Shown: positions 34,795-56,945 of the stretch, piece by piece | Layout: the number at the start of each line of letters is the position of its first letter | Position numbering within the stretch: position 1 is the stretch's first letter | NCBI GenBank assembly: GCA_043817315.1 | Contig: JBDRGY010000001.1 | Span: 154,550-218,549 of the forward strand | Length of the DNA: 64,000 bases | DNA from: Patescibacteria group bacterium | Lineage (GTDB): Bacteria > Patescibacteriota > Patescibacteriia > JBDRGY01 | Direction: 5' to 3' | Translations under genes and position numbers: made by a program | Notes under the pieces: generated by a model | Database searches by the model: none | The model's input: only the letters and a program-made list of their open reading frames with translations | What the model was told of the DNA's origin: nothing

Positions 34795-35342
34795 TAACTT
34801 TCTGTATTGGTTAATGACAAGTCTATTCGAAAGTCTAAATCAGTTTTCTTCAAGAAACTGGAAATCGGTATCTCAATGTTTGTATAGATAGGGTTGCTTT
34901 GTAAGTTATCTTTAAATAAAACAAGGTCATCTCTGGTCCTGGCATATCCGCTTAATTCAACTGCCCGACCAGCCTTTTGTAGGGACCAGTATGTAAACTG
35001 AATTCCGTCAGGAACGTTCTTGGTGAATTGACTGACCACTTCAGACCACTTTTCAGTCGCCTTAAATAACTTATAAACTTCTATAGCTCGCTGATTATAT
35101 TGGGAGATTTTTTGATCTAAAGTAGTAGATGTTCCGGATTTAGTAATCTGCTGAGACGCTTCAATTTGTTGTTCAATGTCAGCAACCCGTTCCTCTATTA
35201 ATAAATTATTTCCCCAGAGAAAAGTTAGCGAGAAGAATAAAACAATGATGGTGTAGATAATTATTTTTCTGGTAATAAAAAGTGTTCTTTCCCTGGCCAG
35301 GGCTAACTTCTTGTGGGGAGGTAAAATGTTTAAGTTAATCAT
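34794..35342 (-). CDS. pilN: Type IV pilus assembly protein PilN-like
   Basis: Short cytoplasmic N-terminus (NILPPHKK...ARE), TM helix, coiled coil. Follows pilM. Confidence 0.6.
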   Translation of the reverse strand: MINLNILPPHKKLALARERTLFITRKIIIYTIIVLFFSLTFLWGNNLLIEERVADIEQQIEASQQITKSGTSTTLDQKISQYNQRAIEVYKLFKATEKWSEVVSQFTKNVPDGIQFTYWSLQKAGRAVELSGYARTRDDLVLFKDNLQSNPIYTNIEIPISSFLKKTDLDFRIDLSLTNTES

Positions 35343-36390
35343 TGTTATTCATCTCCCTTAGAGCCAGTCCAATGGCGGTTGGGTATGACAATATTTTGTT
35401 GTTGGGGATCTGTAATTTGCCCTGTTGCCAATTGATTTGAGGATCTCCTAAGTCCATCTTAATATCAGACCTTGGTTTAATGGGGAGGGCTTGCAACAGA
35501 CCCTTCAGCCTGGCACCTCCTCCTGAAAAGATAATAACTTCAATGGGTTTATGGTTGGTAAAATTATCTTGGTAGTAATTAATAGTATCTATGATTCTCT
35601 TTTTCAGGTTATTGACTATTGGAAGCATTATATTCCGCACCTCTCCCTTGCTGCCTCTTTCATTAAGACCGAAGATAGTCTTGGCTTTTTCAGCTTCACG
35701 AATTGAAAGTTTCAATTTCTGGGCGACGGCTTTTGTCATCTGATTGCCGCCGATTTCCGTGCTGGAAGTGGTAAACATAACCTCATCGTTTTCGGCTAAT
35801 ATGATTGTAGAGCGGTCGAAACCTAAGTCGATAATTATTTGAGCCCCATTAGACTTCTCTTTAATTTTGGATAAACAGCGGGTAATGGCCACTGATTCAA
35901 TTTCTAAGGCGTAGGGGACTAAGTTGGCCTTTTCTAGTGTTCGGACATAGCCATCAACAATAATTTTCGGTGAGGCCCCAATTAAGATTCGTGAGTTATT
36001 ACCGCTTTTACCTAAATTCTGCCAGTCATAATATACTTCATTGAGAGACAAAGGTATATGGTTAGGCAGATCTTTTTTTACGATCCCCTCAATATTAGTC
36101 TCGGCTTCTGGTAAGTCTATCACTTTGATAAAGGATGTCTTTTCCGGCAAGCAGGCTACTACATTGTGTCCTGTGACCTTGCCTTGTAGGTTTTTCAACA
36201 GATCCTTAATAGATTTGGCAACTTTGTCTTCGTTCTTTATTATTCCATTCTGGATAAGCCCAGGAGGAATTTTTATTTCGCCATAAGCCCTTAGCTTGAT
36301 ATCGCCCCGCAATTTAAAAAACTGTACAATCCGTAGAATGTAGTCGCTAAAATCTAGTCCAAAACAGTTTTTCTCTTTGTTACTAAACAT
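35335..36390 (-). CDS. pilM: Type IV pilus assembly protein PilM (actin-like ATPase fold)
   Basis: 351 aa with IIDLGFDRSTIIL and IIFSGGGARLKGL blocks typical of PilM/FtsA-like proteins. Confidence 0.75.
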   Translation of the reverse strand: MFSNKEKNCFGLDFSDYILRIVQFFKLRGDIKLRAYGEIKIPPGLIQNGIIKNEDKVAKSIKDLLKNLQGKVTGHNVVACLPEKTSFIKVIDLPEAETNIEGIVKKDLPNHIPLSLNEVYYDWQNLGKSGNNSRILIGASPKIIVDGYVRTLEKANLVPYALEIESVAITRCLSKIKEKSNGAQIIIDLGFDRSTIILAENDEVMFTTSSTEIGGNQMTKAVAQKLKLSIREAEKAKTIFGLNERGSKGEVRNIMLPIVNNLKKRIIDTINYYQDNFTNHKPIEVIIFSGGGARLKGLLQALPIKPRSDIKMDLGDPQINWQQGKLQIPNNKILSYPTAIGLALREMNNND

Positions 36391-36399
36391 ACATATATT

Positions 36400-37629
36400 T
36401 TAATACTCTTCTTCCCAATGTTCAACATAGATAGTGGGGGAGAAGGATGGTGAGCCTATCGTTGTGTTGACCGTCTCTTCATCGTATGTGATATTGAGTA
36501 CATTCCACAAGCTGATGGTGTGCAACTTACGTGAATAGAAACCACCTACCAGGTCAAACTGAGAAGGTAGGCTGACCATATCAATTTGCTGTAAGGAGTA
36601 AAGAAGCCCTTGAATGGTGATGGCTTGGGTATAAGCTCCAAAATCAATCTTATTTTTACATAGAATGCCAGAGGGCACATCTTCTGTATGGTTAACTGTC
36701 AATTTGGCGAAAGGTTCAGTCTTGGGATTTTGCTTGGTGCCTACTTCTATAGAACCGTCACTTGCCAAAATCCCATTTATGGTAATATCCATCCCTCTTT
36801 TTATGTCTACTCGTCCCGTGACATAATATATTCCGTCCAAAGTTGTAGACGGATTATTGGCTAAAAAAGTAGCGAACTCAGATTCGGTGTAAAGATGATT
36901 TTCAGCAATTGCCTGGTTTTTGTAGGAAGTAGGATCTTCTGAATCAAAGTCAATGGCTGGTTGAATAACAGAATCAGGAGCCGGAGGATAATTAGCAGAT
37001 TCATAAGCCTCAGCAGTAACATCAGCTGTCCAGCTAATATTGATTTGGTTTACTGCCTGGATCTTCTTTTGAACATCGACCTCACTGTCTCCTTTGATAA
37101 GGACGTTATTGTTAGAAAACAAGCCACCGTTATAGACATTGACGATGGAGTCGTCAAAATCAATATTTCCGTTATCATAAATCGCCAGATCAGCTGTAGG
37201 ATTTTCCCCAATGGCTTTGTAAATGGTGGTTTTAATAATTCTTTGTGAGGTTTGTCCGCCGACAACCATAGTTCCGGTAGATGTCACTTCACCTTGGGCT
37301 TGATCCGTATTTTGAATAGTTACCGTGTAAGAACCGCCTTCAAGCAGAGCATTGTCTTGGGTGAATTGGGTTGACCAGGTGGGATTTGTCTCGAAACTAT
37401 TGCGCCAATCGGTATCGTGTTTCAAGCGCCAAATCATTTCGTGAATTCCGGCCTCGGCCAGATAATAATCTTGAATACCTACCGTCTGACTTTTGGCAAT
37501 GCGATATTCGGTTAAGGTAAAATTTAAGAAGTATACACCCAAGAGCATTAACAGGATAATAACAACAATGGAGCTAATTAAAACGAATCCATTTCGTTGT
37601 TTGGCTGAACTTTTTGAGATGGTGGTCAT
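36400..37629 (-). CDS. Large pilin-like protein lacking Glu5 (PilX/GspK-type minor pilin or tip-associated protein)
   Basis: N-terminus QRNG|FVLISSIVVIILLML is a prepilin-like G|F site with Ser at +5. 409-aa Thr/Asn-rich body. Confidence 0.5.
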   Translation of the reverse strand: MTTISKSSAKQRNGFVLISSIVVIILLMLLGVYFLNFTLTEYRIAKSQTVGIQDYYLAEAGIHEMIWRLKHDTDWRNSFETNPTWSTQFTQDNALLEGGSYTVTIQNTDQAQGEVTSTGTMVVGGQTSQRIIKTTIYKAIGENPTADLAIYDNGNIDFDDSIVNVYNGGLFSNNNVLIKGDSEVDVQKKIQAVNQINISWTADVTAEAYESANYPPAPDSVIQPAIDFDSEDPTSYKNQAIAENHLYTESEFATFLANNPSTTLDGIYYVTGRVDIKRGMDITINGILASDGSIEVGTKQNPKTEPFAKLTVNHTEDVPSGILCKNKIDFGAYTQAITIQGLLYSLQQIDMVSLPSQFDLVGGFYSRKLHTISLWNVLNITYDEETVNTTIGSPSFSPTIYVEHWEEEY

Positions 37630-38198
37630 TATTGAATATTACGGCCTAATATCTCAGTACGTAAATTGGTAGCAGAATTGTTCTTTTCCAAACTGGTTTC
37701 GATAACAATTGCTTCAGATCCGTAGAATTGAAGATCGGAAAAGTATTCTCCTACCAACCTATCTTCCTGGACCAATGAAGAAGGAGGTTGGCCACTTACA
37801 TCAGTAGCATTCCAATTGACATATTCTCCTTCCACAAAGTAGTAAACAATGATCTGTCTTTTAAACTGATTACCGTCCAGATAGTATCGAAAGTATCTAA
37901 TAGTATCAATTTGGTGGCCGTCTTGGAACTGAATTTCAGATGGCGGGGGGAAGCCGGGTTCCTCTTTGGTTCCCGGTAGTTCGGTAGTGATTCCTACTGT
38001 TTGTCGTAGTTCTCTAGTTAGTCTATCTAATGTCACTCTGCCGTTTTGCACTATCTCTAGTCGGTCACTGCCTGATCTATAAAACTGCTGGCCCAAGAAA
38101 TAAATAGCGGTGATTGCCAAGAAAACCATGATGCCAATGAATAGGGCCAATATTATTTCAATTAAAGTCATTCCTTTTTTTGTTGATCTTTTTGGCAT
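37629..38198 (-). CDS. Type IV pilin-like protein (class III signal peptide)
   Basis: KKG|MTLIEIILALFIGIM, with Glu at +5. Confidence 0.7.
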   Translation of the reverse strand: MPKRSTKKGMTLIEIILALFIGIMVFLAITAIYFLGQQFYRSGSDRLEIVQNGRVTLDRLTRELRQTVGITTELPGTKEEPGFPPPSEIQFQDGHQIDTIRYFRYYLDGNQFKRQIIVYYFVEGEYVNWNATDVSGQPPSSLVQEDRLVGEYFSDLQFYGSEAIVIETSLEKNNSATNLRTEILGRNIQ

Positions 38199-38199
38199 A

Positions 38200-38625
38200 T
38201 TAAAACTGGCTGATTAAAGAGACAATTTTAAGGTTATTTTCTCCACCTAATTTTGAGGACCAATGTACTGTGACAGTAACTAGTTTGATTCCTTGGTCAG
38301 TCAAGGTAACTTGAAGATCTTCATCAGCATAGACTACTTCAGTTTTCCTTTCAAAAATATAATAAGGATCGTCAGGAGTGGTGTCCAGACGATGTCTTAA
38401 TTCAAATTCACCCATGCCAATCTCTTCGTAATCCAGAGCGGCAATTTCTTCAATTTTCTCCTGGGCCAAATTTGTAGCTATTGTTTTTAATTCAGCGGCC
38501 TTGCTGATCTGTAAACTCCAGGGGAATATGTTGATGATGCTCAATACAGCTATTAACAATACAGCGATGGCGACGATACCTTCGATTACCGTTAATCCTT
38601 GTTTTGATTTATTCGATCTTAACAT
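38200..38625 (-). CDS. Type IV pilin-like protein (class III signal peptide)
   Basis: KQG|LTVIEGIVAIAVLLIAV, with Glu at +5. Start placed at the internal Met (MLRSNKSKQG). Confidence 0.65.
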   Translation of the reverse strand: MLRSNKSKQGLTVIEGIVAIAVLLIAVLSIINIFPWSLQISKAAELKTIATNLAQEKIEEIAALDYEEIGMGEFELRHRLDTTPDDPYYIFERKTEVVYADEDLQVTLTDQGIKLVTVTVHWSSKLGGENNLKIVSLISQF

Positions 38626-39067
38626 AACCTGAGGGTCTAATATCAATAAGTTTAGTTGTATCACGGGTGTTAATTAGGGATATCTGGCCGCTTTCTGATG
38701 GGGCTCCAGCAGAATTATACCTGACCTCATTATCAGTCAGATTTGTAATCGATTGATAAGTTACAGAATCCGGCAAATCCTTTTGCTCGATAAATTCTTC
38801 TACATCAGGTTGTTCCGGGTCAGGAATGCGGTAAAGAGAATATTGATTGGTGGTGGTGTTAAACTTAACTACATAGTTCAGTTGTTCAGTAACAGCCTGT
38901 TGGGCAGCGTAGCGCAGTTCTGAAGCGATATCTCGGGAAGCAGAAGTTAATTGGTAGCCGGGTAGCAGCAGGCGAGTAGAAGGAATACCAATCAAGGCCA
39001 GTATACAAATAATCGCAATAACGACTGCGATCTCGGGCAAATTAAAACCTTTTAGATGATGCATCAC
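38609..39067 (-). CDS. Type IV pilin (class III signal peptide), candidate major pilin
   Basis: MMHHLKG|FNLPEIAVVIAIICILALIG. First pilin gene after pilC. Confidence 0.7.
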   Translation of the reverse strand: MMHHLKGFNLPEIAVVIAIICILALIGIPSTRLLLPGYQLTSASRDIASELRYAAQQAVTEQLNYVVKFNTTTNQYSLYRIPDPEQPDVEEFIEQKDLPDSVTYQSITNLTDNEVRYNSAGAPSESGQISLINTRDTTKLIDIRPSGYVKIE

Positions 39068-39069
39068 AA

Positions 39070-40290
39070 TTATATGACGCTACTTAAGTTGTACATTGGC
39101 ATGATGATAGCAGCAGCAATGGCTGCAATGGCAACCCCCAAAACGATCATCAGAATCGGTTCGATAATTACAGTAAGATTTGACATAGTCTGGTCAATAT
39201 CCTCTTCGTAAAACACTGCAATTTCCTCGGTGATGGTATCAAGAGTTCCTGATTCTTCTCCTACCGAAATCATCTGAGTTACTACCGGAGGAAACAAAGC
39301 AGGATCTTTTTTGAGAATATTTTTTAAAGGCTCGCCCTTCTCTAAATCTTTGCCGACTTCCAGCACGAACTGGCGATAAATAACATTTCCCAATGTCTGA
39401 GCAATTATATTAAAGGATTGAACGATTGGAATATCAGTTTTCAAGAGAGAGCTGAGGGTTCTGGTAAACCTGGCTAAATTTACCTTTTTAATAATACTGC
39501 CTGCTATCGGAGTTTTGAGTAGGATACGATGAAAAAAATGTTTTCCTTTTTTGGTGGCAATAGTCCTTTGTAAACCAATAATTATTGCTACCAAGCTGAC
39601 CAGAAAAACAATTGTATTTCCAGCCATGAATTTACTGGCAGTAATTAGGATTTGGGTCATAAGCGGCAGGGCGGCATCCATCTCTTCGTAGATTGAAGTT
39701 ATCTTAGGAATGACGAAAATCATTGCGAAAATGCCGATACCTAACATAGCCACAACGATAATTAGCGGATAAATCATGGCTCCTCGAACTTTTGATTTGA
39801 GAGTGTGGTCCTTTTTCATTTGAATGGTTATTCTTTTCAGCATTTGTTCCAATTTACCGCTGACCTCGCCTGCCTCAATCATGCTAACAAATATCGGGGG
39901 AAAGACTTTGGGATATTTGCGTAGGGCCTTGGAAAGAGAGATTCCGCCTTCTACGCTTTTTTTCAAATCAACTAATATTTTCTTAAACTTCTTGTTACTG
40001 GTTTGTTCCGACATAGCTTGGAGGGCCACGCTAGCGGAAAAACCGGTTCTGATCATCACTTCTAGGTTCTGAGTAAAAAATATCTTGTCAACTTGCGTTA
40101 CATTACTAAAACGTTCGGCAAGAGTAAATTTAATATTGTTTTTAGCCGGTGTTCCTTTTTCTTCGAAAGAATCCAAAGTCAAACCTTGCTCAGCTAGCTT
40201 ATTTTTCAGCTCATCCGAGTCCTGACATTCCAGCTCACCTACTATTTCTTTATCCTGATCATTTCTTGCTTTGTAGTTGAATTCTGTCAT
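39070..40290 (-). CDS. pilC: Type IV pilus platform protein PilC (GspF family)
   Basis: 406 aa with two GspF repeats and 3 TM helices. Confidence 0.85.
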   Translation of the reverse strand: MTEFNYKARNDQDKEIVGELECQDSDELKNKLAEQGLTLDSFEEKGTPAKNNIKFTLAERFSNVTQVDKIFFTQNLEVMIRTGFSASVALQAMSEQTSNKKFKKILVDLKKSVEGGISLSKALRKYPKVFPPIFVSMIEAGEVSGKLEQMLKRITIQMKKDHTLKSKVRGAMIYPLIIVVAMLGIGIFAMIFVIPKITSIYEEMDAALPLMTQILITASKFMAGNTIVFLVSLVAIIIGLQRTIATKKGKHFFHRILLKTPIAGSIIKKVNLARFTRTLSSLLKTDIPIVQSFNIIAQTLGNVIYRQFVLEVGKDLEKGEPLKNILKKDPALFPPVVTQMISVGEESGTLDTITEEIAVFYEEDIDQTMSNLTVIIEPILMIVLGVAIAAIAAAIIMPMYNLSSVI

Positions 40291-42024
40291 TTATTCCTTG
40301 GTTACTCTTAAAATCTCCTCGATGGTTGTAATGCCGTTCTTGGCTTTAATAAATCCATCCTCTAATATGCTAATCATATTGTGTTCATGAGCCGCCTTAG
40401 TCACTTTTTCTTCGGAGGCTTTGTTGAGCAATAAATCAGCAATCTGCGGGGTTATTTCTAAAACTTCGTATATTCCGATTCTCCCTTTATACCCTTCATT
40501 GTTACATTTTTTACAACCCCTCCCCTTAAAGAAGAGTAAATCTTTTAAAGGCAGGGAAGCAGACTGAATAGCCTCTTCTCGTTCTAGTGTTTTCAGTATT
40601 TGGTCAACATCAACGTCCTTTCGCAGTTCCTCTATTTGGGTTTTTGTCAGATTATAGCTCATAATGCAATAGGGACAAATCCTTCTGACTAGCCGCTGGG
40701 CAATAACCAGGTTAGTGGTTGAAGCTATTAAAAATGATGGTACATTCATTTCAGACATTCGGGTGGGTGCACCCACTGCATCGTTGGTATGTAGGGTTGA
40801 AAGAACCAAATGTCCAGTCATAGCGGCGTGTGACGCTATTTCGGCGGTCTCTTTATCTCTGATTTCTCCAACCATAACTATGTCCGGGTCTTGACGCAAA
40901 ATTGATCTTAAACCGGCAGAAAAAGAAAAACCAATCTTGGGATTTATTTGGCTTTGGTTAATATGGGTGATTCGATATTCAATAGGATCCTCGATAGTGG
41001 CGATGTTAACGCCAGGGGAGTTCAGTATATTTAGGATGGTATAAAGAGTGGTAGTTTTTCCTGATCCGGTTGGTCCAGTTACCAGTATAATACCGTGGGG
41101 AGCCTTGATATTTCTTTTGATGATATCTAAAGGATTAGCCAGCAATCCCAATTGCTCCAGGGTTAGGACTTGAGCCGATTCATTGAGTAGGCGCAAAACG
41201 ATTTTCTCACCATCATAGATAGGCATGATAGAAACTCGGAAAGCAACTTTGTATTCATCGGTTTCAACTTTAAAGCGACCGTCCTGGGGCAGGCGGTGTT
41301 CGTCCAGTTTCAAGTTGGAGAGGATTTTAATTCTAGCCACTACTCCGTTTTGGATTTTTTTAGGTAGAGTCATTACTTGACGCAAAATGCCATCAATCCG
41401 GTAACGAACAATCACTTCTTTCTCAGTTGGCTCGATATGTATATCGGATGCGTTTTCAAAAATAGCGTATTCCAAAAGTGTGTCCACTATTCTGATGACC
41501 GGCAAATCTTGGGCCAGTTCTTTTAGGTCTTTCTCTTCTCTTGCTTTTTCTTCTGGTTTTTTTTCTTCAGTAAATTCAGCAAACTTCGCCTTGATTCCCT
41601 TGTGAAACTGTTTGATGGCATCGTTTATTCCCGAGGGAGTGGTGATATGAATATCCAATTCCTGCCCAGTCTTTTTTTTGATAAATTCAAAAGTTTCCAG
41701 ATCATTAGGATCCAGAGTGGCAATTTTTAGGGTATTATCGGTTTTATCAAAGACTATTAGCTTGTGAGTCTGAACAATCGGTTCAGGTAATATGGTGAGA
41801 ATATCTTTCCGAATAGTTTGGTTTTTTAAATCAATAAAAGGCAACTTAAAAGAGGTGGCAATAGTTTCAAAAAGAGTTTGTTCCGGTACAATTTTTTCCT
41901 TTAGAATCAGTTCCTGTAAAGAAACATCACTGCTTTTAGTTTTGGCCTTAAGTCGCTCCAATTCCTCTTTTTTCAGAAGATTGGACTTAATTAAAATGCT
42001 TTCCAGTTGTTTTCCAGAAATCAT
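40291..42024 (-). CDS. pilB: Type IV pilus assembly ATPase PilB (GspE family)
   Basis: Walker A GPTGSGKTT, Asp box, His box, a Cys tetrad (CPYC...CKKC) and an N-terminal GSPII_E_N domain. Confidence 0.9.
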   Translation of the reverse strand: MISGKQLESILIKSNLLKKEELERLKAKTKSSDVSLQELILKEKIVPEQTLFETIATSFKLPFIDLKNQTIRKDILTILPEPIVQTHKLIVFDKTDNTLKIATLDPNDLETFEFIKKKTGQELDIHITTPSGINDAIKQFHKGIKAKFAEFTEEKKPEEKAREEKDLKELAQDLPVIRIVDTLLEYAIFENASDIHIEPTEKEVIVRYRIDGILRQVMTLPKKIQNGVVARIKILSNLKLDEHRLPQDGRFKVETDEYKVAFRVSIMPIYDGEKIVLRLLNESAQVLTLEQLGLLANPLDIIKRNIKAPHGIILVTGPTGSGKTTTLYTILNILNSPGVNIATIEDPIEYRITHINQSQINPKIGFSFSAGLRSILRQDPDIVMVGEIRDKETAEIASHAAMTGHLVLSTLHTNDAVGAPTRMSEMNVPSFLIASTTNLVIAQRLVRRICPYCIMSYNLTKTQIEELRKDVDVDQILKTLEREEAIQSASLPLKDLLFFKGRGCKKCNNEGYKGRIGIYEVLEITPQIADLLLNKASEEKVTKAAHEHNMISILEDGFIKAKNGITTIEEILRVTKE

Positions 42025-42050
42025 TGATATTTTTTAAGTTTACTAGCTAT

Positions 42051-42079
42051 ATTATATCACATAACAGGACTTTAGTCAA
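42051..42079 (-). promoter_or_regulatory. Consensus sigma-70 promoter for the pilus operon (TTGACT-17-TATAAT on minus strand)
   Basis: Minus strand reads TTGACTaaagtcctgttatgtgaTATAAT. The -10 element ends about 27 nt upstream of the pilB ATG. Confidence 0.6.
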
Positions 42080-42087
42080 TTATAAAA

Positions 42088-42112
42088 AGACCAGAGGCAT
42101 ATCCGGTCTTGT
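42088..42112 (-). terminator. Intrinsic terminator after the PMT-like gene (minus strand)
   Basis: Minus strand reads CAAGACCggatatgcctctGGTCTTtttataa: 6-7 bp stem followed by a T-run. Confidence 0.45.
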
Positions 42113-42149
42113 AGTCAGTAATCTTTAGCTGGGCAAGGATGCAAATAAA

Positions 42150-43928
42150 CTAGATTTGGTATATCCAAATAGAGTGGCTAATAGTTGCTATGGGTTGATA
42201 TTGTTCTAACCAAGAAAACTCTTTTTCTTTGGAAAGAAGTGCTGTAACTGAGATGGCAATGTGACCGTGCCAGTCCGGCAACGTAGCAATCTCTTGATTA
42301 TTCGGCGGTGACTCCCAATTAACATCGTAGGACCGGGGATCAACCGAGCCAAAGTAATGAAGGTAAATTGAATCGAGTCCATTGGCATCCATGTAGTTCT
42401 TTAATTGAATCAAGCCTTGTCCCCAGTCAATATTGGAGTCAGTAAGATAGCGGTGACCACGTTGTGGTCCCCCCACTAGTTCCTGAAAATATGAAAGGTA
42501 GTGAGGGTAGATCCAAAACGAGGAAATCAATAGTTGAATACAAAGTAGGGCGGCAATGCCGGTCAAGATTTTTTGATTTTTTAGCAAGCGTCCTAGAAAT
42601 AAAGCTATAAAGATAAAGATGAAGGGGAAGATGGGTAATAGATGTCTTATGCCAATATTTAATTTGCTGCTTAGGGTCCAGCCGAAATAAAAGGTGATCG
42701 AGATAAATAATGCCCAATAAACAAAAGGAACTAAATCCAAAAACGATTTAATTTTGGTTACTAACTTTTGAGTAGTACCTTTTAATTTATCCTTAGTTCT
42801 ATTGACACCTCGAAGGAACAGAAAAACTGTTGAAAAAATAATTAATAAGGTGATTGCGATTGGAGTTTTGACTAGAAAAGCAATTGGGAAATAATACCAC
42901 CAGCCAAAATCAGAATGTTGACCCAGGAGGTAAGAGGTGTGCCCAAAGTGATTGTGGCGTGCCAAAAGATAAAAACCCTTGAAATAAGAAAAACCAGGGA
43001 CCGGAACTTCATGGGAAAACCATTTGATAAATTTTCCGATTAGCTTTTCGGGATCAGTTTGTTTATACCAAAAGCGAGGGAAGCTATTTTGTTGTTCTAA
43101 GTATTCTTCATCCAACCAATGAGGCAGATTTTGATAATAATCAGAAACCAGAGGATCTTCAATTGTTGTTTTCAGTTCAAATCCGTAAAATGAAATGATT
43201 AGGAAATAAGTAATGATAAAAATGAGGGCGAAGGCTCCAAAGAATTTTTTGAAGCTAAAACGACTTGGGGGGTAGTAGATCAAAAATAAGGTGATCAAAA
43301 TGGGAATTAGGATCACCGAAGAAAATTTGGTAAGGCTAGCACCGGCAAAGGCGAGGGCCACGTATACTAAATTCTTCCAATTCGATTTCTTTAAATAGTT
43401 CAACCAAAGATAGATTGTTAAAAAGATGAAAAAGGTAATGGGAATATCAGTGGTAACATAGCGGGAATGAGCTATGATATTAGGGTTAAAGGCGTATAGG
43501 ATTAAGGCCAAAAAGGCAGTCTTGGTGTTAAAGTACTTTCTGGTAAATTTGAAAATTATAAAACCAAGTAGTAAACTAAATAACATCGTCGGTAATCTGC
43601 CCAAGCCAAGTATTAATCGGTTGGAAACTCTGTTGTTGTGAATTAGCTGTCTGGCGTATTCCCATTGATTATCATCATAGGCGTCAGTATCGAATTTATC
43701 GTCCAGATCAAGGAAAAGTAGGGGAATAGCAGCCAGGTATTTAGACAGCGGTGGATGTTCAGGGTTTAATTCGAAGTTTAGATCTTTAAGATAGGCATAG
43801 CCGGAGGATAAATGCACTCCTTCATCAATTGTTTGAGATTCATTGGTAGCTGAAGAAACCTCCAGCCAGAACATGGCTGATAGTATCAGTGCTACAAAGA
43901 GAAAAATAATTCTTTTAGATGATTTCAT
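42150..43928 (-). CDS. GT-C glycosyltransferase, PMT/ArnT-like (GT39/GT83 family; dolichyl/undecaprenyl-phosphate-sugar dependent)
   Basis: First loop DEGVHLSSGYAYL...NPEHPPLSKYL matches the PMT DE-x-H ... HPPL-x-K signature. 592 aa with more than 10 TM helices. Confidence 0.75.
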   Translation of the reverse strand: MKSSKRIIFLFVALILSAMFWLEVSSATNESQTIDEGVHLSSGYAYLKDLNFELNPEHPPLSKYLAAIPLLFLDLDDKFDTDAYDDNQWEYARQLIHNNRVSNRLILGLGRLPTMLFSLLLGFIIFKFTRKYFNTKTAFLALILYAFNPNIIAHSRYVTTDIPITFFIFLTIYLWLNYLKKSNWKNLVYVALAFAGASLTKFSSVILIPILITLFLIYYPPSRFSFKKFFGAFALIFIITYFLIISFYGFELKTTIEDPLVSDYYQNLPHWLDEEYLEQQNSFPRFWYKQTDPEKLIGKFIKWFSHEVPVPGFSYFKGFYLLARHNHFGHTSYLLGQHSDFGWWYYFPIAFLVKTPIAITLLIIFSTVFLFLRGVNRTKDKLKGTTQKLVTKIKSFLDLVPFVYWALFISITFYFGWTLSSKLNIGIRHLLPIFPFIFIFIALFLGRLLKNQKILTGIAALLCIQLLISSFWIYPHYLSYFQELVGGPQRGHRYLTDSNIDWGQGLIQLKNYMDANGLDSIYLHYFGSVDPRSYDVNWESPPNNQEIATLPDWHGHIAISVTALLSKEKEFSWLEQYQPIATISHSIWIYQI

Positions 43929-44281: not shown

Positions 44282-45343
44282 ATGGACTTTTTAGAAGATT
44301 TCGGGATTATTAAAATATTCTTGATGACGGCTTTGTCATTTGTCTTGGCTATATCCTGGACACCCTTGCTGTCTCATTTTTTGTATAAATATAAAATGGG
44401 AAAGACCATTCGCGATATTAAAAGCGCCCCTATTTTTTCCAAACTTCACCGGAAGAAATCAGGAACTCCGACTATGGGTGGTATGTTGATTTGGGTAACT
44501 ACTTTATTGTTGGCCGCCTTATTTTGGATATTAGCCCGGGCTACCGACGTTGAGCTGTTTGATAAGCTAAACTTTTTGACCCGACCCCAGACTTTATTGC
44601 CTTTGGGTGCCTTGGTGGTATCAGCCATTATTGGGTTGGTAGACGATTACTTCAACACACGCAAGATAGGGGATAACGGCGGAGGGATGAAGATGAAGAT
44701 CAGAATTATGCTTTATACCGCTATTGCCATAGGGGGTGCTTATTGGTTTTTCTATAAGCTAGACTGGGATTTGATCCATGTGCCTTTTGTCGGTAACTTC
44801 GAGATTGGATTCTGGTACATTCCAATCTTCATATTTATTATTGTAGCCACCTCTTTTTCGGTTAATGAATCAGATGGTCTTGATGGTTTAGCCGGTGGGG
44901 TTTTACTAATCTGTTTTGGTGCATTTGGTATCATAGCTTTTGCCCAGGGTAAAACCGATTTGGCAACTTTCTGTGGAGTTATCTCCGGGGCCTTGTTGGC
45001 TTTTTTATGGTTCAATATACCCCCAGCTCGTTTTTTTATGGGCGACACTGGTTCTATGGGTTTGGGGGTTACTTTGGGCATTGTGGCTATGCTGACCAAC
45101 TATGCCTTATTATTGCCCATTATCGGTTTAGTCTTGGTTCTGGAATCTTCATCGGTCATCATTCAATCTGCCTCTAAAAAATTTCGGAAAAAGAAGGTGT
45201 TTCTCTCTACCCCGATTCATCATCATTACGAAGCTATTGGTTGGCCCGAGAGTAAGATTGTGATGCGTTTCTGGGTGATTACCGGAGTGATGGCCATGAT
45301 TGGATTGGTAATCGTATTTATGGAGCGCGGATTCACTTTTTAG
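44282..45343 (+). CDS. mraY: Phospho-N-acetylmuramoyl-pentapeptide transferase
   Basis: DGLDGLAGG and FMGDTGSMGLG motifs. 353 aa with about 10 TM helices. Confidence 0.95.
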   Translation: MDFLEDFGIIKIFLMTALSFVLAISWTPLLSHFLYKYKMGKTIRDIKSAPIFSKLHRKKSGTPTMGGMLIWVTTLLLAALFWILARATDVELFDKLNFLTRPQTLLPLGALVVSAIIGLVDDYFNTRKIGDNGGGMKMKIRIMLYTAIAIGGAYWFFYKLDWDLIHVPFVGNFEIGFWYIPIFIFIIVATSFSVNESDGLDGLAGGVLLICFGAFGIIAFAQGKTDLATFCGVISGALLAFLWFNIPPARFFMGDTGSMGLGVTLGIVAMLTNYALLLPIIGLVLVLESSSVIIQSASKKFRKKKVFLSTPIHHHYEAIGWPESKIVMRFWVITGVMAMIGLVIVFMERGFTF

Positions 45344-45360
45344 AATTTAGCTAAAAAAAT

Positions 45361-45389
45361 AAGGGCTCGTACTTACGAACCCTTTTTTG
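45361..45389 (+). terminator. Intrinsic terminator after mraY
   Basis: aaGGGCTCGTacttACGAACCCttttttg: 8-9 bp stem with one mismatch, followed by a T-run. Confidence 0.55.
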
Positions 45390-45432
45390 ATTGAACCGTC
45401 TTTACTAAATAAATAAGCCAAATCTTCTCAAA

Positions 45433-45460
45433 TTAAAAAGGGCACATGTTTCGTGCCCTT
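45433..45460 (-). terminator. Intrinsic terminator of the GC-rich island-1 gene (minus strand)
   Basis: Minus strand reads AAGGGCACgaaacatGTGCCCTTtttaa: perfect 8-bp stem 12 nt after the stop codon. Confidence 0.65.
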
Positions 45461-45471
45461 AGGGTAGAGAA

Positions 45472-46134
45472 CTACTTGCGGCGGCTGCGAACGATCAAGA
45501 CCACCAGACCGACTAGACAAACTACGGCGATGATCCAGATACCGGTTCGGTTGCTACCGGTCTCCTCAGCCTCCTGTAGCCTGACATACTGCGGGTACTC
45601 GCTGGCCACAGTTCCCGACTGCTTCCTGAAGCCGACACTTTGATGGATCCAGCCGGTCTTCTTGGGATCAAAGCGGACCTTGAACCATTGACCCTGTTTT
45701 TCCACAATGGTCAGTTCGTCGGCCTTCTTGACCTTGGCGTAGTGCTGGACAGCCTTGTCTCCCCAGACCCGGCCAATCTCGGTTGCCTCTCGTGAATTCC
45801 GATCGCGAATAATGGCTCGATAGGCGGTCACATGAAAGACGTGTTTGGGAACCTGCTCGCTGAACAGCTGGTAGGGATTGTCGTCAGTGTCGTAGAGAAC
45901 CTTGAGGTTGTCATCGGCCAGAGGCAGCGTGGTCGGTTGAGCCAAGTCTCCCCTGATCTCGGTACCACCGGTAAAGGCAGCCGAAGTGGTGGTAAAGTGA
46001 CATCCCAGACACTCAACGACTTTATGCATCTGCGAGTTATCTTCGCTGATGACACAGCGCTGGTTCGGCTCCAGGTTGATGGACACAACGGCCAGACAGA
46101 GCACGGCCGCTACCAAGAAGCTAAGCTTCCTCAT
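45472..46134 (-). CDS. Secreted/anchored protein of GC-rich island 1, with signal peptide, CxxCH motif, SH3b-like domain, and C-terminal TM plus basic tail
   Basis: MRKLSFLVAAVLCLAVVS signal peptide. VECLGCH (CxxCH). QGQWFKVRFDPKKTGWIHQSVGF resembles a bacterial SH3b domain. C-terminus ETGSNRTG-IWIIAVVCLVGLVVLIV-RSRRK. Local GC about 55% by hand count versus about 40% host. Confidence 0.6.
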   Translation of the reverse strand: MRKLSFLVAAVLCLAVVSINLEPNQRCVISEDNSQMHKVVECLGCHFTTTSAAFTGGTEIRGDLAQPTTLPLADDNLKVLYDTDDNPYQLFSEQVPKHVFHVTAYRAIIRDRNSREATEIGRVWGDKAVQHYAKVKKADELTIVEKQGQWFKVRFDPKKTGWIHQSVGFRKQSGTVASEYPQYVRLQEAEETGSNRTGIWIIAVVCLVGLVVLIVRSRRK

Positions 46135-46223
46135 CCTGCACCCCCTTCCTAGGGTTTGCCCGACAGTGATATCAGCTGAAAAGAACCAAGAATTAGTATA
46201 TCTTAGCTTAATCAGCTGAGATT

Positions 46224-46298
46224 TGTCAACCCCGAAGGAAATTTATCAGTCCGCAGAGGAGAAAGGTTATTTAATGAGAAATTTCCCTTCGGGGTCAA
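46224..46298. repeat. Long imperfect inverted repeat / hairpin upstream of murD at the island-1 boundary
   Basis: CAACCCCGAAGGAAATTT ... loop of about 32 nt ... AAATTTCCCTTCGGGGTC: 17-18 bp arms with a single 1-nt indel. Confidence 0.6.
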
Positions 46299-46341
46299 TA
46301 GGTAGAAAAAGACCGAAATTTCTGTTATAATTCTATTTACT

Positions 46342-47727
46342 ATGTTATTTATTGAACTGAAAAACAAAAAGGTAGTTTTGATGGGATTAGGCGTACTGGG
46401 CGGCGGCTTGGGTACTGCTAAATATCTGGCTCAATCAGGAGCCAGGCTTTTAATTACAGACCTGAAATCAGCCAAAGAACTGAAAGATTCTTTGAAAGAA
46501 TTGAAAAAATATAGAAACATTCGATACGTATTGGGCCAACATCGCCAGCAGGATTTTCGGGGTAAGGATTTAATCGTTAAAAACCCCGGCGTTCCCAATA
46601 ATTCAGCTTATCTTAAAATAGCCAGGAAACATAATATTCCAATTGAGACGGACACCAGCCTTTTCTTTTTGATCAATCAAGGTCCGGTAATCGGTATTAC
46701 TGGCTCCAAAGGAAAATCAACTACTGCCACCCTGGTTTACCAAATATTTAAAGAAGCCAAACGACAACCAGTCCTGGCTGGCAATATCCGGGTATCGGCC
46801 TTATCTCAACTTAAAAAGATTAAGAAGAGAACACCGGTAATCCTAGAATTATCCAGTTGGCAATTGAACAGTATCAAGAAACATAAAAGCAGCCCTTTCG
46901 TTTCTGTCATAACCAATATTTTTCCGGAACATCTGAATCGCTATTCCGGTATTAAGGCGTATGTTGCTGATAAAAAATTAATTTTTCAAAATCAAACGGA
47001 GTCAGATTTTGTTGTTTTAAATAAAGATAATAAAATTACCAGACAACTAGGCCAAGAAGTTGTTTCCCAACGCTATTGGTTTTCCCGGAAATATTTTAGT
47101 GACGAGAACGGCTGCTATATTAAATCGGATTTTATCTTTTTCAGGCAAAATGGCAGAGAGCAAAAGGTAATCAGAGTGGCTGACATTAAAGTAAGGGGGA
47201 CTCACAATCTAGAAAATATTCTAGCCGCGGTTTGTATCGCCAAGATTTACGGCCTGGGTACTAAAAGTGTTCACCGGGCAGTTACTCAGTTTAAGGGATT
47301 AGAAGATCGTTTACAATTGGTAAAAAATTATCATGGCGTCAAATATTATAACGATACCACGGCTACTCATCCGGAAGCAGTGATAGCAGCCCTTGATTCT
47401 TTTGAATCCAAAGTGATTTTAATTGCCGGTGGCGCTGACAAAAAATTGAATTTTGCTGCTTTGGCCAAAAAGATAAAGCAAAGAGCCCGTTTTTTAATTC
47501 TACTCAAAGGGAATGCAAGCAACAAATTACTAAACGAGTTAAATAAGGTAAAATTCAACAACTTGGTAATAGTCGACACTATGCCCAGGGCGGTAAAGGT
47601 GGCTCAGTTTGTGGCGATAGCAAATGATATTGTCTTACTTTCTCCGGGAGCTGCTTCTTTTAACCTATTTATCAACGAATTTGATAGGGGGGGCCAGTTT
47701 AAACAATGCGTCAAAGGCCTAAAGTAA
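46342..47727 (+). CDS. murD: UDP-N-acetylmuramoylalanine--D-glutamate ligase
   Basis: GITGSKGKSTTATLV P-loop and the Mur ligase three-domain layout. Gene order mraY-murD-ftsW-murG. Confidence 0.9.
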   Translation: MLFIELKNKKVVLMGLGVLGGGLGTAKYLAQSGARLLITDLKSAKELKDSLKELKKYRNIRYVLGQHRQQDFRGKDLIVKNPGVPNNSAYLKIARKHNIPIETDTSLFFLINQGPVIGITGSKGKSTTATLVYQIFKEAKRQPVLAGNIRVSALSQLKKIKKRTPVILELSSWQLNSIKKHKSSPFVSVITNIFPEHLNRYSGIKAYVADKKLIFQNQTESDFVVLNKDNKITRQLGQEVVSQRYWFSRKYFSDENGCYIKSDFIFFRQNGREQKVIRVADIKVRGTHNLENILAAVCIAKIYGLGTKSVHRAVTQFKGLEDRLQLVKNYHGVKYYNDTTATHPEAVIAALDSFESKVILIAGGADKKLNFAALAKKIKQRARFLILLKGNASNKLLNELNKVKFNNLVIVDTMPRAVKVAQFVAIANDIVLLSPGAASFNLFINEFDRGGQFKQCVKGLK

Positions 47728-55002: not shown

Positions 55003-55005
55003 CTC

Positions 55006-55034
55006 TTGACTTATTCTAAAAAATGTGCTAATAT
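55006..55034 (+). promoter_or_regulatory. Sigma-70-like promoter (TTGACT-17-TAATAT) downstream of secA
   Basis: TTGACT at 55006-55011, 17-bp spacer, TAATAT at 55029-55034. Confidence 0.5.
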
Positions 55035-55060
55035 TATAGTGTTGTTCCTTAAATAGGAAA

Positions 55061-55078
55061 CAAAAACAAAAACAAAAG
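55061..55078. repeat. Short tandem repeat (CAAAAA)x3
   Basis: caaaaacaaaaacaaaag, seen directly. Confidence 0.7.
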
Positions 55079-55082
55079 GACA

Positions 55083-55171
55083 GGCTAGGAGTCCTCATCT
55101 AATTTGGGACACCTTGAGCCTGAGTACAATAATTTGGACTTAAAGTGTCTCAAATTAGTGGACTCCTAGCC
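55083..55171 (+). promoter_or_regulatory. Structured 5' leader / operator-like nested inverted repeats upstream of the L,D-transpeptidase gene
   Basis: GGCTAGGAGTCC at 55083-55094 and its reverse complement GGACTCCTAGCC at 55160-55171. Three copies of TAATTTGG(G)AC at about 55099 and 55129, and inverted at 55150, allow alternative pairings. Confidence 0.5.
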
Positions 55172-55207
55172 TTCACCCCTTGTTTCCAATTTAGGAATAA
55201 AACAAAA

Positions 55208-56644
55208 ATGAAAAAAACTGCAAAAAGTTTTTATTTTTTTATGGTAATCCTTTTGGGGATTATTTTTTTATACCCAGAGGGACTTTTGGCTTACTACCAG
55301 AGGGAGACGGAAGTTAAGGTTTATACCACGGGTAACTTAAGCCTCTACGACAGCTTCAAGCCTTTTTCCTCGGAGTTTCTAGGGGGCGCTGACATTGCCT
55401 TGGGTGATTTGGGAGGTGATGGAATTGACGAAGTTGTTTTGGGCACTGGCCCTGGGGATTCTCCTTACGTCAAAGTACTAAGAGCTGATGGAACCGAAAT
55501 CAATACCTTCTTGGCTTACGGTTCCTTTTTTGATAGGGGAATAACTGTAACCACTTGTGATCTTGATAATGATAATCAGGAAGAAATTATTACCGGTACC
55601 CGCTACGGTGGTGGACCACAAGTCCGGGTTTTTGATGGATATGGTAATTTAAAATTCACTCCAGGCTTTTATGCTTACGATATGAAATTCCGCGGCGGCG
55701 TCAATGTAGCTTGTGGAGACCTGGATGGAGACGGTTATCGGGAGATAATCACTGCACCGGGACCTTCCGGCGGTCCTCACATCCGGGTGTTTAACCGTTA
55801 CGGTGAATATCTGGGAGTTGACTTCTATCCGTTTGAAGATTCTTTCCGGGGAGGGATATCAATAGCTGTTGCTAATTTTGACGGCGGACCAGAGGAAGAA
55901 TTAATTGCCGGCAGACAGAGTTATGGACGTTCTCAAATAATTACATTTAAAACTTCGCCTGAAACCTACGTCATCGGTGACTTCGTAGCTTTCACTGACG
56001 ACTTTTTGGGGGGAGTAAATCTGGCTGGTGGTGATATTGACCATGACGGCTATGACGAAGTAATTGCCACTGCCAATGCAGGAGGTGGTCCTCATGTCAG
56101 ATCATTTGAGGGATACGGAGAGTTTACTGGAAAACAGTTTTTTGCCTACGAAGGAGATTTCCGAGGGGGCACTAATGTAGCTATGGGTGATATGGATGGA
56201 GGAGGTCTAAAAGAAATTTTTGTGGCTCCGAATTCTAAAGTTCTTGAAGGCCGAACCGATTTATATAAATACATCGAAATTGATATTTCGGAACAGAAGC
56301 TGCAATATTTTGAAAACGGATTCAAGATAGGGGAGTATCCGGTTTCTACAGGCAAGGTTGGAATGCCCACCCCCTACGGTGAATTTAAAGTGATGAGCAG
56401 AAGTTTGGATGCTTACTCATCTAAGTATGCCTTGTGGATGCCTTGGTGGCAGCAGTTTACTTCTGCCGGTCATGGTATTCACGGTTTACCTTATTGGAAA
56501 CTAAGCGGCGGCGGAGTATACAAAGAAGGAGAGAACCATTTAGGATTGCGAGTTTCCCACGGCTGTGTCCGCTTGCCTTGGGAGGGAGCAGAGAAATTAT
56601 ATAATTGGTCCTCAACGGGAACCGTAATCATCATCCACGAATAA
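55208..56644 (+). CDS. Secreted FG-GAP/beta-propeller repeat protein fused to a C-terminal YkuD-type L,D-transpeptidase domain
   Basis: Signal peptide MKKTAKSFYFFMVILLGIIF. About 6 repeats of GDxDGDGxDExxxGxGxGGGPxVRVF. C-terminal HGIHG...RVSHGCVRLP catalytic His/Cys motif. The upstream ATG at 55145 lies inside the leader inverted repeat and is less likely to be the start. Confidence 0.75.
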   Translation: MKKTAKSFYFFMVILLGIIFLYPEGLLAYYQRETEVKVYTTGNLSLYDSFKPFSSEFLGGADIALGDLGGDGIDEVVLGTGPGDSPYVKVLRADGTEINTFLAYGSFFDRGITVTTCDLDNDNQEEIITGTRYGGGPQVRVFDGYGNLKFTPGFYAYDMKFRGGVNVACGDLDGDGYREIITAPGPSGGPHIRVFNRYGEYLGVDFYPFEDSFRGGISIAVANFDGGPEEELIAGRQSYGRSQIITFKTSPETYVIGDFVAFTDDFLGGVNLAGGDIDHDGYDEVIATANAGGGPHVRSFEGYGEFTGKQFFAYEGDFRGGTNVAMGDMDGGGLKEIFVAPNSKVLEGRTDLYKYIEIDISEQKLQYFENGFKIGEYPVSTGKVGMPTPYGEFKVMSRSLDAYSSKYALWMPWWQQFTSAGHGIHGLPYWKLSGGGVYKEGENHLGLRVSHGCVRLPWEGAEKLYNWSSTGTVIIIHE

Positions 56645-56661
56645 CCATCTGTAGATAAAAA

Positions 56662-56700
56662 AGACCCGACTATATAGGTTATGTCGGGTTCTTTGTTTTG
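56662..56700. terminator. Bidirectional intrinsic terminator between the L,D-transpeptidase gene and GC-rich island 2
   Basis: aaaaaGACCCGACtatataggttatGTCGGGTTctttgttttg: 7-8 bp stem with A/T runs on both sides. Confidence 0.65.
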
Positions 56701-56711
56701 TGATAGGTGCC

Positions 56712-56945
56712 TTATTGCTTCAGCATCATTCTGGGGCCGCCACCACCGGAAGCACGGTAGCGTCTTCCCCGATGGAAACGATTGGGGTCGCGGGCCCGCT
56801 TGATGGCGTCATCAATTGCAGCCATAACCTTGGGTAAGTCTCTGGCCCCGCGGACAATTCTGGCGAAGTTAGCGCGACGTTGTCGAGCTTCTTCTGGAGT
56901 TGGCTTACGACGAACGGGACTGGATGAACCTTCCTTGTCAGGCAT
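56712..56945 (-). CDS. Island-2 small highly basic protein (77 aa), hypothetical nucleic-acid-binding
   Basis: AGGAGG ribosome-binding site 4 nt before the ATG. Arg/Lys-rich with a Gly-rich tail. RRKPTPEEARQRR motif related to the neighbouring paralogs. Confidence 0.5.
   Translation of the reverse strand: MPDKEGSSSPVRRKPTPEEARQRRANFARIVRGARDLPKVMAAIDDAIKRARDPNRFHRGRRYRASGGGGPRMMLKQ

Follow-up and report, generated by a model that had tools for sequence, protein, structure and literature searches.

In the 64,000-nucleotide stretch of Patescibacteria contig JBDRGY010000001.1 analysed here (the window), the genes mraY and murD of the dcw cluster are separated by 998 bp, from the end of mraY at 45343 to the start of murD at 46342. 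The sole long open reading frame (ORF) of this gap lies on the minus strand at 45472–46134 and encodes a hypothetical protein of 220 amino acids (aa; NCBI MFH1597646.1, ABIB97_01060). We favour, with a probability of about 0.6, the reading of the block as an accessory islet that is specific to one small clade of Patescibacteria, varies between its strains and occupies their mraY–murD junction. Judged from its sequence and predicted fold, the 220-aa product is best described as belonging to a new family of membrane-anchored SH3b surface proteins that evolves fast and has a very narrow distribution. The original prediction of a GC-rich block of about 1 kb in this gap, carrying one minus-strand 220-aa gene, agrees with what is present (998 bp, GC content 0.555).

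The islet at the mraY–murD junction

The murD–islet junction recurs at 98.4–98.6% identity in two independent ENA assemblies, L001 and L002 (related loci and proteins are given by L and P handles), and it is therefore no assembly chimera. Over the coding sequence (CDS), the window and L001 differ at seven sites, six of which are synonymous third-position changes and one of which is non-synonymous (D156A). This 6:1 ratio implies purifying selection on the reading frame within the strain line, and on this comparison the 220-aa ORF is a real gene.

Six family members were assembled: the window protein, P0028, P0073, P0143, a 196-aa protein of L094 and a 177-aa paralogue in L011. When 5.8 billion clusters were searched by word index, the gene itself was the only match. 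HMMER against 1.84 billion representatives returned 141 matches, nearly all of them multi-SH3b-repeat proteins and centred on residues 132–167; only two extend over the full length, P0028 (252 aa, E = 3.5e-8) and P0073 (215 aa, E = 2.7e-5). P0143 was added by a profile search and the L094 and L011 proteins by genomic-context look-ups. Close relatives were found through the protein databases, while a MurD search of genome contigs gave at best 48% identity and an MraY search of metagenomes at most 71%.

Every family member is encoded antisense between mraY and murD, in L011, L012, L013 and L094 as in the window. The MraY proteins of these four other islet-bearing lineages are 81–91% identical to that of the window (84% in L012, with MurD at 79%; 82% in L094). 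The gene order in L013 is secA-murB-murC-murG-ftsW-murD, then the gene, then mraY. All five lineages have homologous sequence between the gene and murD, which comprises the extended −10 element of murD (TGTTATAAT), a T-run, the islet −35 (TTGACAA) and −10 (GCTAAGATA) elements and a block of the 5′ untranslated region (5′UTR; TATCGTTCATTTTA). The outgroups L003, L005 and L100 (MraY 62–71%) have the same upstream synteny, with mraY and murD 7–42 bp apart. In L100 (MraY 71%), pilB, a PMT glycosyltransferase gene, a small membrane ORF and mraY are followed by murD after 42 bp, and in L003 and L005 (62–64%) the gaps are 7 and 27 bp. In L096–L099 (72–74%) mraY is followed by ftsW and murD is absent from this position.

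Since the islet occupies one junction with a homologous promoter in five lineages and the outgroup junctions are empty, its insertion appears to date to the ancestor of the clade. We infer that this was the ancestor of lineages with MraY identities of at least about 81%. The islet is not private to this genome. An insertion of foreign origin had been predicted: the insertion relative to the outgroups and the alien composition both stand, but the same-site homologues in L011, L012, L013 and L094 speak against a recent or private event. In the dcw clusters of these relatives the same gene is an old, clade-wide feature, and its composition is non-host-like there too.

The adjacency of mraY and murD, which had been taken as normal, is no firm rule in Patescibacteria. 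Among 19 surveyed loci with both genes, the two abut in ten and hold other genes between them in nine. Such genes lie in sense orientation, and most of them have a host-like composition, one exception being the GC-rich gene of L043. Patescibacteria keep only loosely to the textbook order of the dcw cluster. In 80 metagenome loci (L014–L093) and in L006, mraY often has no murD within 5 kb downstream. The intervening sense-strand genes (L006, L023, L033, L036, L038, L045, L080 and L085 are among the loci) include ftsW and murG, a gene for a 248-aa YfiH/PgeF-like protein and one for an amidohydrolase-like protein of about 520 aa. The gene in L043 (6038–7129; MraY 56%) lies on the sense strand between mraY and murD, has a GC content of 0.57 in a locus of 0.40 and encodes 363 aa, by eye a dUTPase fused to a dCMP-deaminase-like zinc domain. 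It suggests that more than a single lineage can accommodate foreign DNA at this junction.

The signals around the 220-aa gene are consistent with a transcription unit of its own. A sigma-70-type promoter (TTGACA, 18 nucleotides (nt), TAAGAT) is found on the minus strand at 46200–46229, and its −35 and −10 elements and the downstream 5′UTR block are kept in five of five lineages. A GGAGG-type ribosome-binding site, GGAAGGGGGTG, which is also kept in relatives, is positioned upstream of the ATG (46138–46150, minus strand). On the plus strand murD has its own promoter of the extended −10 type (TGTTATAAT, 46303–46331), the −10 of which is conserved in all five islet-bearing lineages. A promoter scan of the window finds the same two promoters. 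The gene ends in an intrinsic terminator consisting of a 9-bp stem followed by TTTTTAATTT (45438–45460, minus strand; folding free energy (ΔG) −16.4, z-score −5.0), in agreement with the terminator predicted for it at 45433–45460. In the L001 counterpart the stem is kept and the loop is changed.

A second hairpin, at 45361–45384, has an A-run upstream and a T-run downstream and is therefore bidirectional in form. It forms ten pairs on the minus strand (−14.9 kcal), while on the mraY strand a C·A mismatch reduces this to −11.1 kcal. In L011 the homologous hairpin comes, by alignment, after the last islet gene. The element is probably the distal terminator of an ancestral multi-gene islet and also ends mraY. 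A separate mraY terminator had been proposed at 45361–45389; the hairpin exists, but its stronger fold is on the minus strand and its form is bidirectional.

Two further elements are located in the divergent promoter region. The 8-bp palindrome TCAGCTGA occurs at 46172–46179 and 46212–46219, where the two copies bracket the islet −10 and the transcription start. There are exactly two copies in the 64 kb, 40 bp apart, against a window-wide expectation of 0.68. The pair is kept in L001 and L002, is without counterpart in the other lineages and may be an operator pair. A long inverted repeat (46229–46295) lies between the divergent promoters and overlaps the −35 element. It has a ΔG of −25.6 to −27.7 (z-score −3.2 to −3.6), and none of 200 shuffled sequences folds as well. 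Compared with L011, L012, L013 and L094 it is lineage-specific extra sequence of about 60 nt; shorter, unrelated hairpins are seen at its position in L011, L012 and L013, and none in L094. A search of Rfam returned nothing at the gathering threshold, the hairpins giving only sub-threshold noise. The long hairpin and the TCAGCTGA copies had been read as the right boundary of the insertion. Both exist, but they sit inside the divergent promoter region and are not insertion boundaries; they are candidate regulatory elements rather than insertion scars.

Taken together with the comparison of loci, these signals suggest the following course of events. The islet would have entered once, in the ancestor of the lineages with MraY identities of at least about 81%, and would have split the mraY–murD transcription unit. 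After the insertion murD would be expressed from its own extended −10 promoter and the bidirectional hairpin would close mraY. The islet would be transcribed alone, antisense to the operon, using the TTGACA/TAAGAT promoter, the GGAGG-type ribosome-binding site and the intrinsic terminator.

The left flank of the islet, mraY (44282–45343, plus strand, 353 aa), encodes a PF00953 protein that is 100% identical to the NCBI MraY P0144 and has a GC content at third codon positions (GC3) of 0.47. The right flank, murD (46342–47727, plus strand, 461 aa), is the first gene of the series murD-ftsW-murG-murC-murB-secA, and the same order, with the corresponding Pfam domains, is found in L013. Directly upstream of mraY is a type IV pilus/competence-like cluster (33971–43928), which is also seen in L095 (1–5641) and L100 (1–3622). 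It contains pilM/N/O-like genes, pseudopilins, a pilC-like gene and a gene for a pilB-like ATPase (40291–42024), followed by a PMT-family glycosyltransferase gene (42150–43928). The synteny of the cluster is kept in relatives, and it bears on DNA uptake as a route of allele exchange.

The encoded SH3b protein

The 220-aa protein has exactly two hydrophobic segments, residues 1–23 and 196–219. The N-terminal segment was assigned as a signal peptide covering residues 1 to about 23 (46066–46134, minus strand), in which MRK is followed by a hydrophobic core. The signal peptide of the original prediction is supported by hydropathy and by a helix at residues 2–19 in the AlphaFold2 (AF2) model, the call itself being made by eye. 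By eye as well, each family member has a hydrophobic stretch at its N-terminus, with an AxA-like site after it.

The domain at residues 100–175 (approximate limits; 45610–45837, minus strand) is an SH3b domain according to Pfam, AF2, Foldseek and a profile search of the PDB, and the SH3b-like segment noticed originally was correctly recognized. The window protein matches Pfam SH3_3 (PF08239) with E = 3.1e-5 and 24.5 bits, slightly under the gathering score of 27, and all six family members match the model, the best with E = 6e-14. A single-sequence AlphaFold prediction was unusable, with a predicted local distance difference test score (pLDDT) of 43, and an alignment of five sequences was used instead. 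The resulting model is all-beta with pLDDT values of 65–86 over residues 95–175 or so, and is confident otherwise only at the terminal helices; residues 20–90, which include a CxxCH motif, have no confident model. The top Foldseek matches in the PDB are SH3b domains: 2kt8, 9ovi (TM-score (template modelling score) 0.81, root-mean-square deviation (rmsd) 1.9), 2krs (TM-score 0.70, rmsd 1.6), NlpC/P60 proteins and the lysostaphin SH3b domain. Because the rest of the model is poor, the Foldseek E-values are only about 0.01. The PDB profile search matched the SH3b domains of 9ovi, 2krs, 2kt8 and 2kq8, and the NCBIfam models EntFM and EntA–D were matched through the SH3b domain. The window allele and P0028 have in common an insertion of about 16 residues in one SH3b loop.

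The C-terminal segment (45475–45543, minus strand) consists of a transmembrane helix at residues 198–215 by hydropathy, modelled by AF2 as a helix at residues 196–219, and of the basic tail RSRRK. The helix and the Arg/Lys tail are kept in six of six members, without a conserved motif before the helix. We read the C-terminus as a stop-transfer anchor and the protein as a type I membrane protein that displays its SH3b domain outside the membrane. In this topology the first gene of the islet, which is constant in position, would encode a Sec-exported product with a signal peptide, a short variable N-terminal segment, the SH3b domain, a conserved juxtamembrane strand (YxQYVRL), a single transmembrane helix and a basic cytoplasmic tail. 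Its most likely role, to judge by the domain family, would be to expose at the cell surface a module that binds peptidoglycan or the cell wall.

Known bacterial SH3b domains (PF08239 SH3_3 and PF06347 SH3_4) resemble the window protein in fold, in profile match and in their extracytoplasmic location. Examples are lysostaphin (5LEO, 4LXC), NlpC/P60 hydrolases (3H41), phage endolysins (4KRT), CPE1231/CPF_0587 from Clostridium perfringens (2KT8, 2KRS) and EntFM and EntA–D from Bacillus cereus. Unlike these, the 220-aa protein has no catalytic partner (amidase, peptidase or NlpC/P60), has a single SH3b domain and ends in a membrane helix. The same layout, in which a C-terminal transmembrane segment tethers an exported SH3b domain, is found in TIGR04211 (SH3_and_anchor), the type of Escherichia coli YgiM with its signal peptide, SH3 domain and C-terminal membrane anchor. 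Four of the six family members match TIGR04211 weakly (best E = 1.2e-5). Membership is excluded for the window protein, which reaches 13.5 bits against a cut-off of 65 (E = 0.04) and aligns, through its SH3 segment only, with positions 23–56 of the 198 in the model. TIGR04211 proteins are not known to be hypervariable or to be encoded in dcw clusters.

The tripartite C-terminus had been likened to a sortase or exosortase sorting signal. The resemblance to LPXTG/sortase substrates lies in the hydrophobic helix followed by basic residues, but the protein has no LPXTG-like motif: the TIGR01167 score of 11.2 bits (E = 0.47) falls short of the cut-off of 15.9, the NPXTG model gives E = 0.95 and no other CTERM sorting model was matched in an NCBIfam scan of the family. 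The sequences that precede the helix in different members (ETGSNRTG, NSSTSTRA, WEPQQLLVGG and QNIKIDH) have no common motif, and the sorting-signal assignment was rejected.

The proposed c-type heme motif, CLGCH, is present at residues 42–46, after the signal peptide (45997–46011, minus strand), and is the sole CxxCH among window ORFs of at least 90 aa. P0028 has CAHCH at the aligned position, and a conserved His lies upstream in both proteins. The likeness to c-type cytochromes lies in this CxxCH within an exported segment and in the upstream His of the two alleles. Unlike in cytochromes, the motif is missing from four of the six homologues and the segment around it (pLDDT below 50) is modelled with low confidence or as disordered. 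At E ≤ 10, no cytochrome family of Pfam or NCBIfam matches the window protein; one family member gives a weak match to the CxxCH cytochrome model TIGR01904 (E = 0.011). Neither a sortase nor a cytochrome-maturation domain was found by Pfam in ten unassigned or membrane proteins of the window, or by eye in its remaining ORFs. Of this prediction the motif itself stands, without the profile match that a cytochrome assignment would call for; a heme or metal site might exist in some of the alleles but is unsupported.

Variation and base composition

The family proteins are only 20–29% identical to the window protein, compared with 82–84% for MraY. The alleles of L012 and L013 illustrate how such divergence is distributed. 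Identity is 100% from murD, across the promoter, to about nt 70 of the CDS. The central 290 nt or so, which encode the ectodomain and SH3b domain, are unalignable (about 40–48% identity), after which identity returns to 82–93% in the anchor and 93–100% in mraY. From this alignment the gene is a mosaic with a replaced centre.

Gene number varies as well, from one in the window and at least three in L001 to two in L094 and four in L011, where the islet is flanked by the mraY 3′ end and which comes from the same metagenome-assembled genome (MAG) as L095; L012 and L013 have one each, with the swapped centre. L001, which is 98.4% identical to the window, departs from it exactly at 45404, the homology decaying up to that point. 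Beyond it L001 has a TTGACA-type promoter, a ribosome-binding site, a gene for a 96-aa two-helix membrane protein and the start of a further secreted signal-peptide ORF (L001 1197–1618). Where L001 has these extra genes, the window has just 34 bp (45404–45437, minus strand) of decayed promoter, a remnant of the second islet gene. This difference is a strain-level gene gain or loss. The 96-aa protein of L001 is homologous to an 85-aa islet protein of L011 (E = 1.3e-9), although the two occupy different islet positions. The sequences compared here show a diversity hotspot with mosaic alleles, in which the signal peptide and anchor are conserved, the ectodomain is swapped and gene number varies.

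Contigs over the locus are unusually short in several assemblies (852–3622 bp), and the KKI23 MAG breaks inside mraY. These observations fit co-existing strains that differ at a hypervariable site and so fragment the assembly graph. A diversity-generating retroelement target was considered and rejected: there is no second gene copy in the window, no reverse-transcriptase-like ORF was noticed by eye, and the L012/L013 segment is unalignable rather than point-substituted.

The composition of the gene is far from that of its surroundings. The 220-aa gene has a GC content of 0.555, with values of 0.58, 0.39 and 0.69 at the three codon positions, while the GC3 of 36 host genes is 0.413 ± 0.030 with a maximum of 0.50 (z = 9.2 for the 220-aa gene). 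Its relative synonymous codon usage (RSCU) correlates with that of the host at 0.14 only, compared with 0.55 or more for every host gene. The 500-bp segment 45501–46000 has a GC content of 0.558 compared with about 0.40 around it and 0.41 on average over the 64 kb. Islet genes across lineages have GC3 values of 0.49–0.70 (0.54–0.70 in the SH3b family) versus 0.36–0.47 for flanking genes. The GC-richness coincides with coding sequences; the promoter, the 5′UTR and the spacers between genes are AT-rich and conserved. At 4-fold degenerate sites mraY is 33–40% identical between lineages, that is, saturated. The GC content at such sites of the islet gene is 0.68 for the window allele, 0.61 for L094, 0.58 for L011 and 0.49–0.50 for L012 and L013, with the host at 0.45–0.47. 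Allele replacement from an unsampled GC-richer pool, a recombination-driven rise of GC in place or selection for the bias may be the source of this codon usage.

The window contains a further GC-rich block, island 2 (56426–58975, with ORFs at 56712–59022, minus strand; GC about 0.51), which holds at least six small ORFan genes. It is flanked by a YkuD/FG-GAP L,D-transpeptidase gene (55145–56644) and secD (59135–60802), and has a TTGACA-type promoter near 59060–59091 and a terminator near 56656–56689. Its products are Arg-rich proteins, a two-helix membrane protein and a Cys-pair protein, without Pfam or PHROG assignment. A common origin or mechanism had been suggested for the two blocks. The RSCU of the 220-aa gene correlates with that of island 2 at r = 0.53, and that of island 2 with the host at 0.25, but an all-against-all comparison of islet and island 2 proteins revealed no homology, so that the relation is at the level of composition only. 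The only homologies across islets are those between the 96-aa protein of L001 and the 85-aa protein of L011, and between the 177-aa protein of L011 and the SH3b family.

Another conserved element was noticed just downstream of secA, where the spacer at 55003–55093 is 95.7% identical to L013 1–92, compared with 69–74% for coding DNA of the two genomes. It comprises a strong promoter (TTGACT, 17 nt, TGTGCTAATAT), after which a conserved leader contains a small hairpin (GTTCCTTAAATAGGAAAC) together with CAAAAA repeats and GGACAGGCTAGGAGTCC. A conserved small RNA is one possible reading of this spacer, a 5′ leader another; Rfam gave sub-threshold noise only.

Alternative explanations and significance

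Flexible genomic islets, or hotspots between core genes, are a general concept, as are strain-variable surface loci that are kept by recombination and diversifying selection. The mraY–murD islet resembles these in its fixed position among core genes, variable content, atypical composition, ORFan secreted or membrane proteins and mosaic alleles. Unlike the usual ones, it lies inside the dcw cluster in antisense orientation, measures just 1–2.3 kb, has a vertically conserved promoter and carries no mobility genes; its GC content also exceeds that of the genome, while islets of this kind more often have an excess of AT. As the driver of its variability we consider homologous recombination among clade members at the conserved flanks the most likely, with diversifying selection from contact with phages or host cells, both of which are speculative.

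Several observations weigh against the reading of the block as such an accessory islet, or limit it. The family is known from only five lineages, most of them represented by short contigs, cleavage of the signal peptide was assessed by eye, and cell-wall binding is deduced from the domain family alone. The CxxCH and upstream His of two alleles are not explained by a pure cell-wall-binding role, nor does this reading account for the role of the long inverted repeat and the TCAGCTGA pair. The synonymous sites are saturated, and in a gene handed down vertically from the ancestor of the clade a foreign GC3 signature should by now have faded; yet the 4-fold GC content of the window allele is 0.68 rather than the 0.45–0.47 of the host. 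Simple vertical descent therefore does not explain everything, and the allele seen today may have been imported later, from an unsampled relative of higher GC content.

Searches for a mobile element or a donor covered the block, the window and several databases. No integrase, recombinase or transposase ORF is present in or beside the block, no significant direct repeats or terminal inverted repeats flank it, and the 64-kb window contains no tRNA or tmRNA (transfer or transfer-messenger RNA), no further copy of the inverted-repeat arms and no silent donor cassette or paralogue of the block. The 220-aa gene and the island 2 genes have no PHROG matches except for a weak one of unknown function. 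No relatives were found in IMG/VR or, by tblastn, among INPHARED phages and PLSDB plasmids, and no outside donor among the 1.84 billion protein representatives. Literature on CxxCH proteins or GC-rich islands in Patescibacteria yielded only general statements of genomic islands and horizontal transfer in the phylum (PMC12455944).

Repeated xenologous replacement, in which an ancestral slot is overwritten from an unsampled GC-richer pool (other Patescibacteria or mobile elements) through transformation and recombination at the conserved promoter, terminator and flanking genes, is unlikely but deserves serious attention. It would account for the restriction of GC-richness to coding sequence amid AT-rich, conserved promoter, 5′UTR and spacers, for the sharp central loss of similarity between L012 and L013, for the codon usage in common with island 2 and for the small membrane-protein gene common to L001 and L011 (E = 1.3e-9) at different islet positions; the graded 4-fold GC contents (0.68, 0.61, 0.58 and 0.49–0.50) are as expected for imports of different ages. 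The absence of a donor from the representatives, viral contigs, phages and plasmids searched, and of any integrase, att-like repeat or tRNA, speaks against it. All known members moreover belong to one clade and locus, and the pool may be the clade itself, with genomes of about 40% GC. Bias arising in place, through GC-biased gene conversion or a local mutational bias, needs no donor: frequent recombination at variable islets would enrich synonymous G and C and give both islands their bias. Recombination is evident at the locus, the GC excess is at third positions (0.69 versus 0.41) and persists across lineages with saturated synonymous divergence, two unrelated islands have one bias, and recombination and GC3 are reportedly linked in bacteria. 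On the other hand, the flanking genes, as the anchors of recombination, have normal GC, and spacers within islets stay AT-rich. At four of the six synonymous sites that distinguish L001 from the window, L001 has A/T where the window has G/C, and these changes cannot be polarised. Taken alone, we regard this explanation as improbable. A little less so, though still rather improbable, is a farther-reaching idea that joins it to the variability, in which the islet and island 2 would belong to an as yet undescribed class of hypervariable loci for surface proteins, driven by recombination, in episymbiotic Patescibacteria. Cassettes would be swapped at conserved promoter, signal-peptide and anchor sequences as an antigenic-variation or host-range system, with GC-richness made in situ, for example by GC-biased gene conversion. 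In a variant of this idea, CxxCH alleles would bind heme or metal at the surface of an organism without a respiratory chain.

The original prediction itself, a recent and private foreign gene for a c-type-heme CxxCH protein attached to the wall via a sortase- or exosortase-type signal, is decidedly improbable. A GC3 of 0.69 and an RSCU correlation with the host of 0.14 are in its favour, as are the CLGCH that is unique in the window, with its CAHCH counterpart and upstream His in P0028, the TIGR01904 match of one family member (E = 0.011) and a hydrophobic C-terminal helix followed by basic residues. Its 'recent and private' part is largely refuted by the presence of the family and of a homologous promoter at one site in five lineages with saturated synonymous sites, and no homologue outside the clade, nor in the phages, plasmids and viral contigs searched, points to a foreign source. 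The wall-attached heme protein fares no better, in view of the LPXTG score (11.2 versus 15.9 bits, E = 0.47) with no conserved motif before the helix, the absence of CxxCH from four of six members, the lack of a cytochrome family at E ≤ 10 and of any other CxxCH ORF in the window, and the absence of sortase and cytochrome-maturation domains from the ten proteins scanned with Pfam and, by eye, from the others. A remnant of a mobile element (prophage, integrative element, insertion sequence or miniature inverted-repeat transposable element, or integron-like cassette) that targets the mraY–murD spacer is less probable again. The compact, self-contained expression unit, the different gene numbers between strains, the long inverted repeat at one edge and the different GC-rich gene at the same junction in distant L043 would suit such an element. 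They have to be set against the lack of an integrase, transposase, tRNA and flanking direct or terminal inverted repeats, an inverted-repeat sequence that does not recur in the window, a vertically conserved promoter region and the absence of viral, phage or plasmid relatives and of PHROG matches other than the weak one. That the block is an assembly or binning artefact, or the ORF a spurious one in a chance GC-rich stretch, is barely credible. The source is a MAG, related contigs measure 852–3622 bp and one MAG breaks inside mraY, but the junctions recur in independent assemblies from different samples, the ratio of synonymous to non-synonymous changes is 6:1 and a conserved SH3b-bearing protein family exists. 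The independent assemblies by themselves refute this reading.

The accessory islet thus remains our preferred reading. If its gene is an ordinary accessory gene, the locus is a cautionary case in which a 'foreign insertion' called from the composition of a single genome proves to be an old, clade-wide feature. The persistence of GC-rich codon usage amid saturated synonymous divergence could inform the debate between foreign origin and biased conversion. The islet is also a convenient strain marker, and primers in mraY and murD would capture its alleles from environmental DNA. For all its supposed rigidity, the dcw cluster can accommodate an accessory unit in antisense orientation, and murD would then be expressed from a promoter of its own. 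Patescibacteria (Candidate Phyla Radiation, CPR) are mostly obligate episymbionts with tiny genomes, and the determinants of their attachment, host range and phage susceptibility are largely unknown. The islet protein is a concrete candidate for such a determinant.

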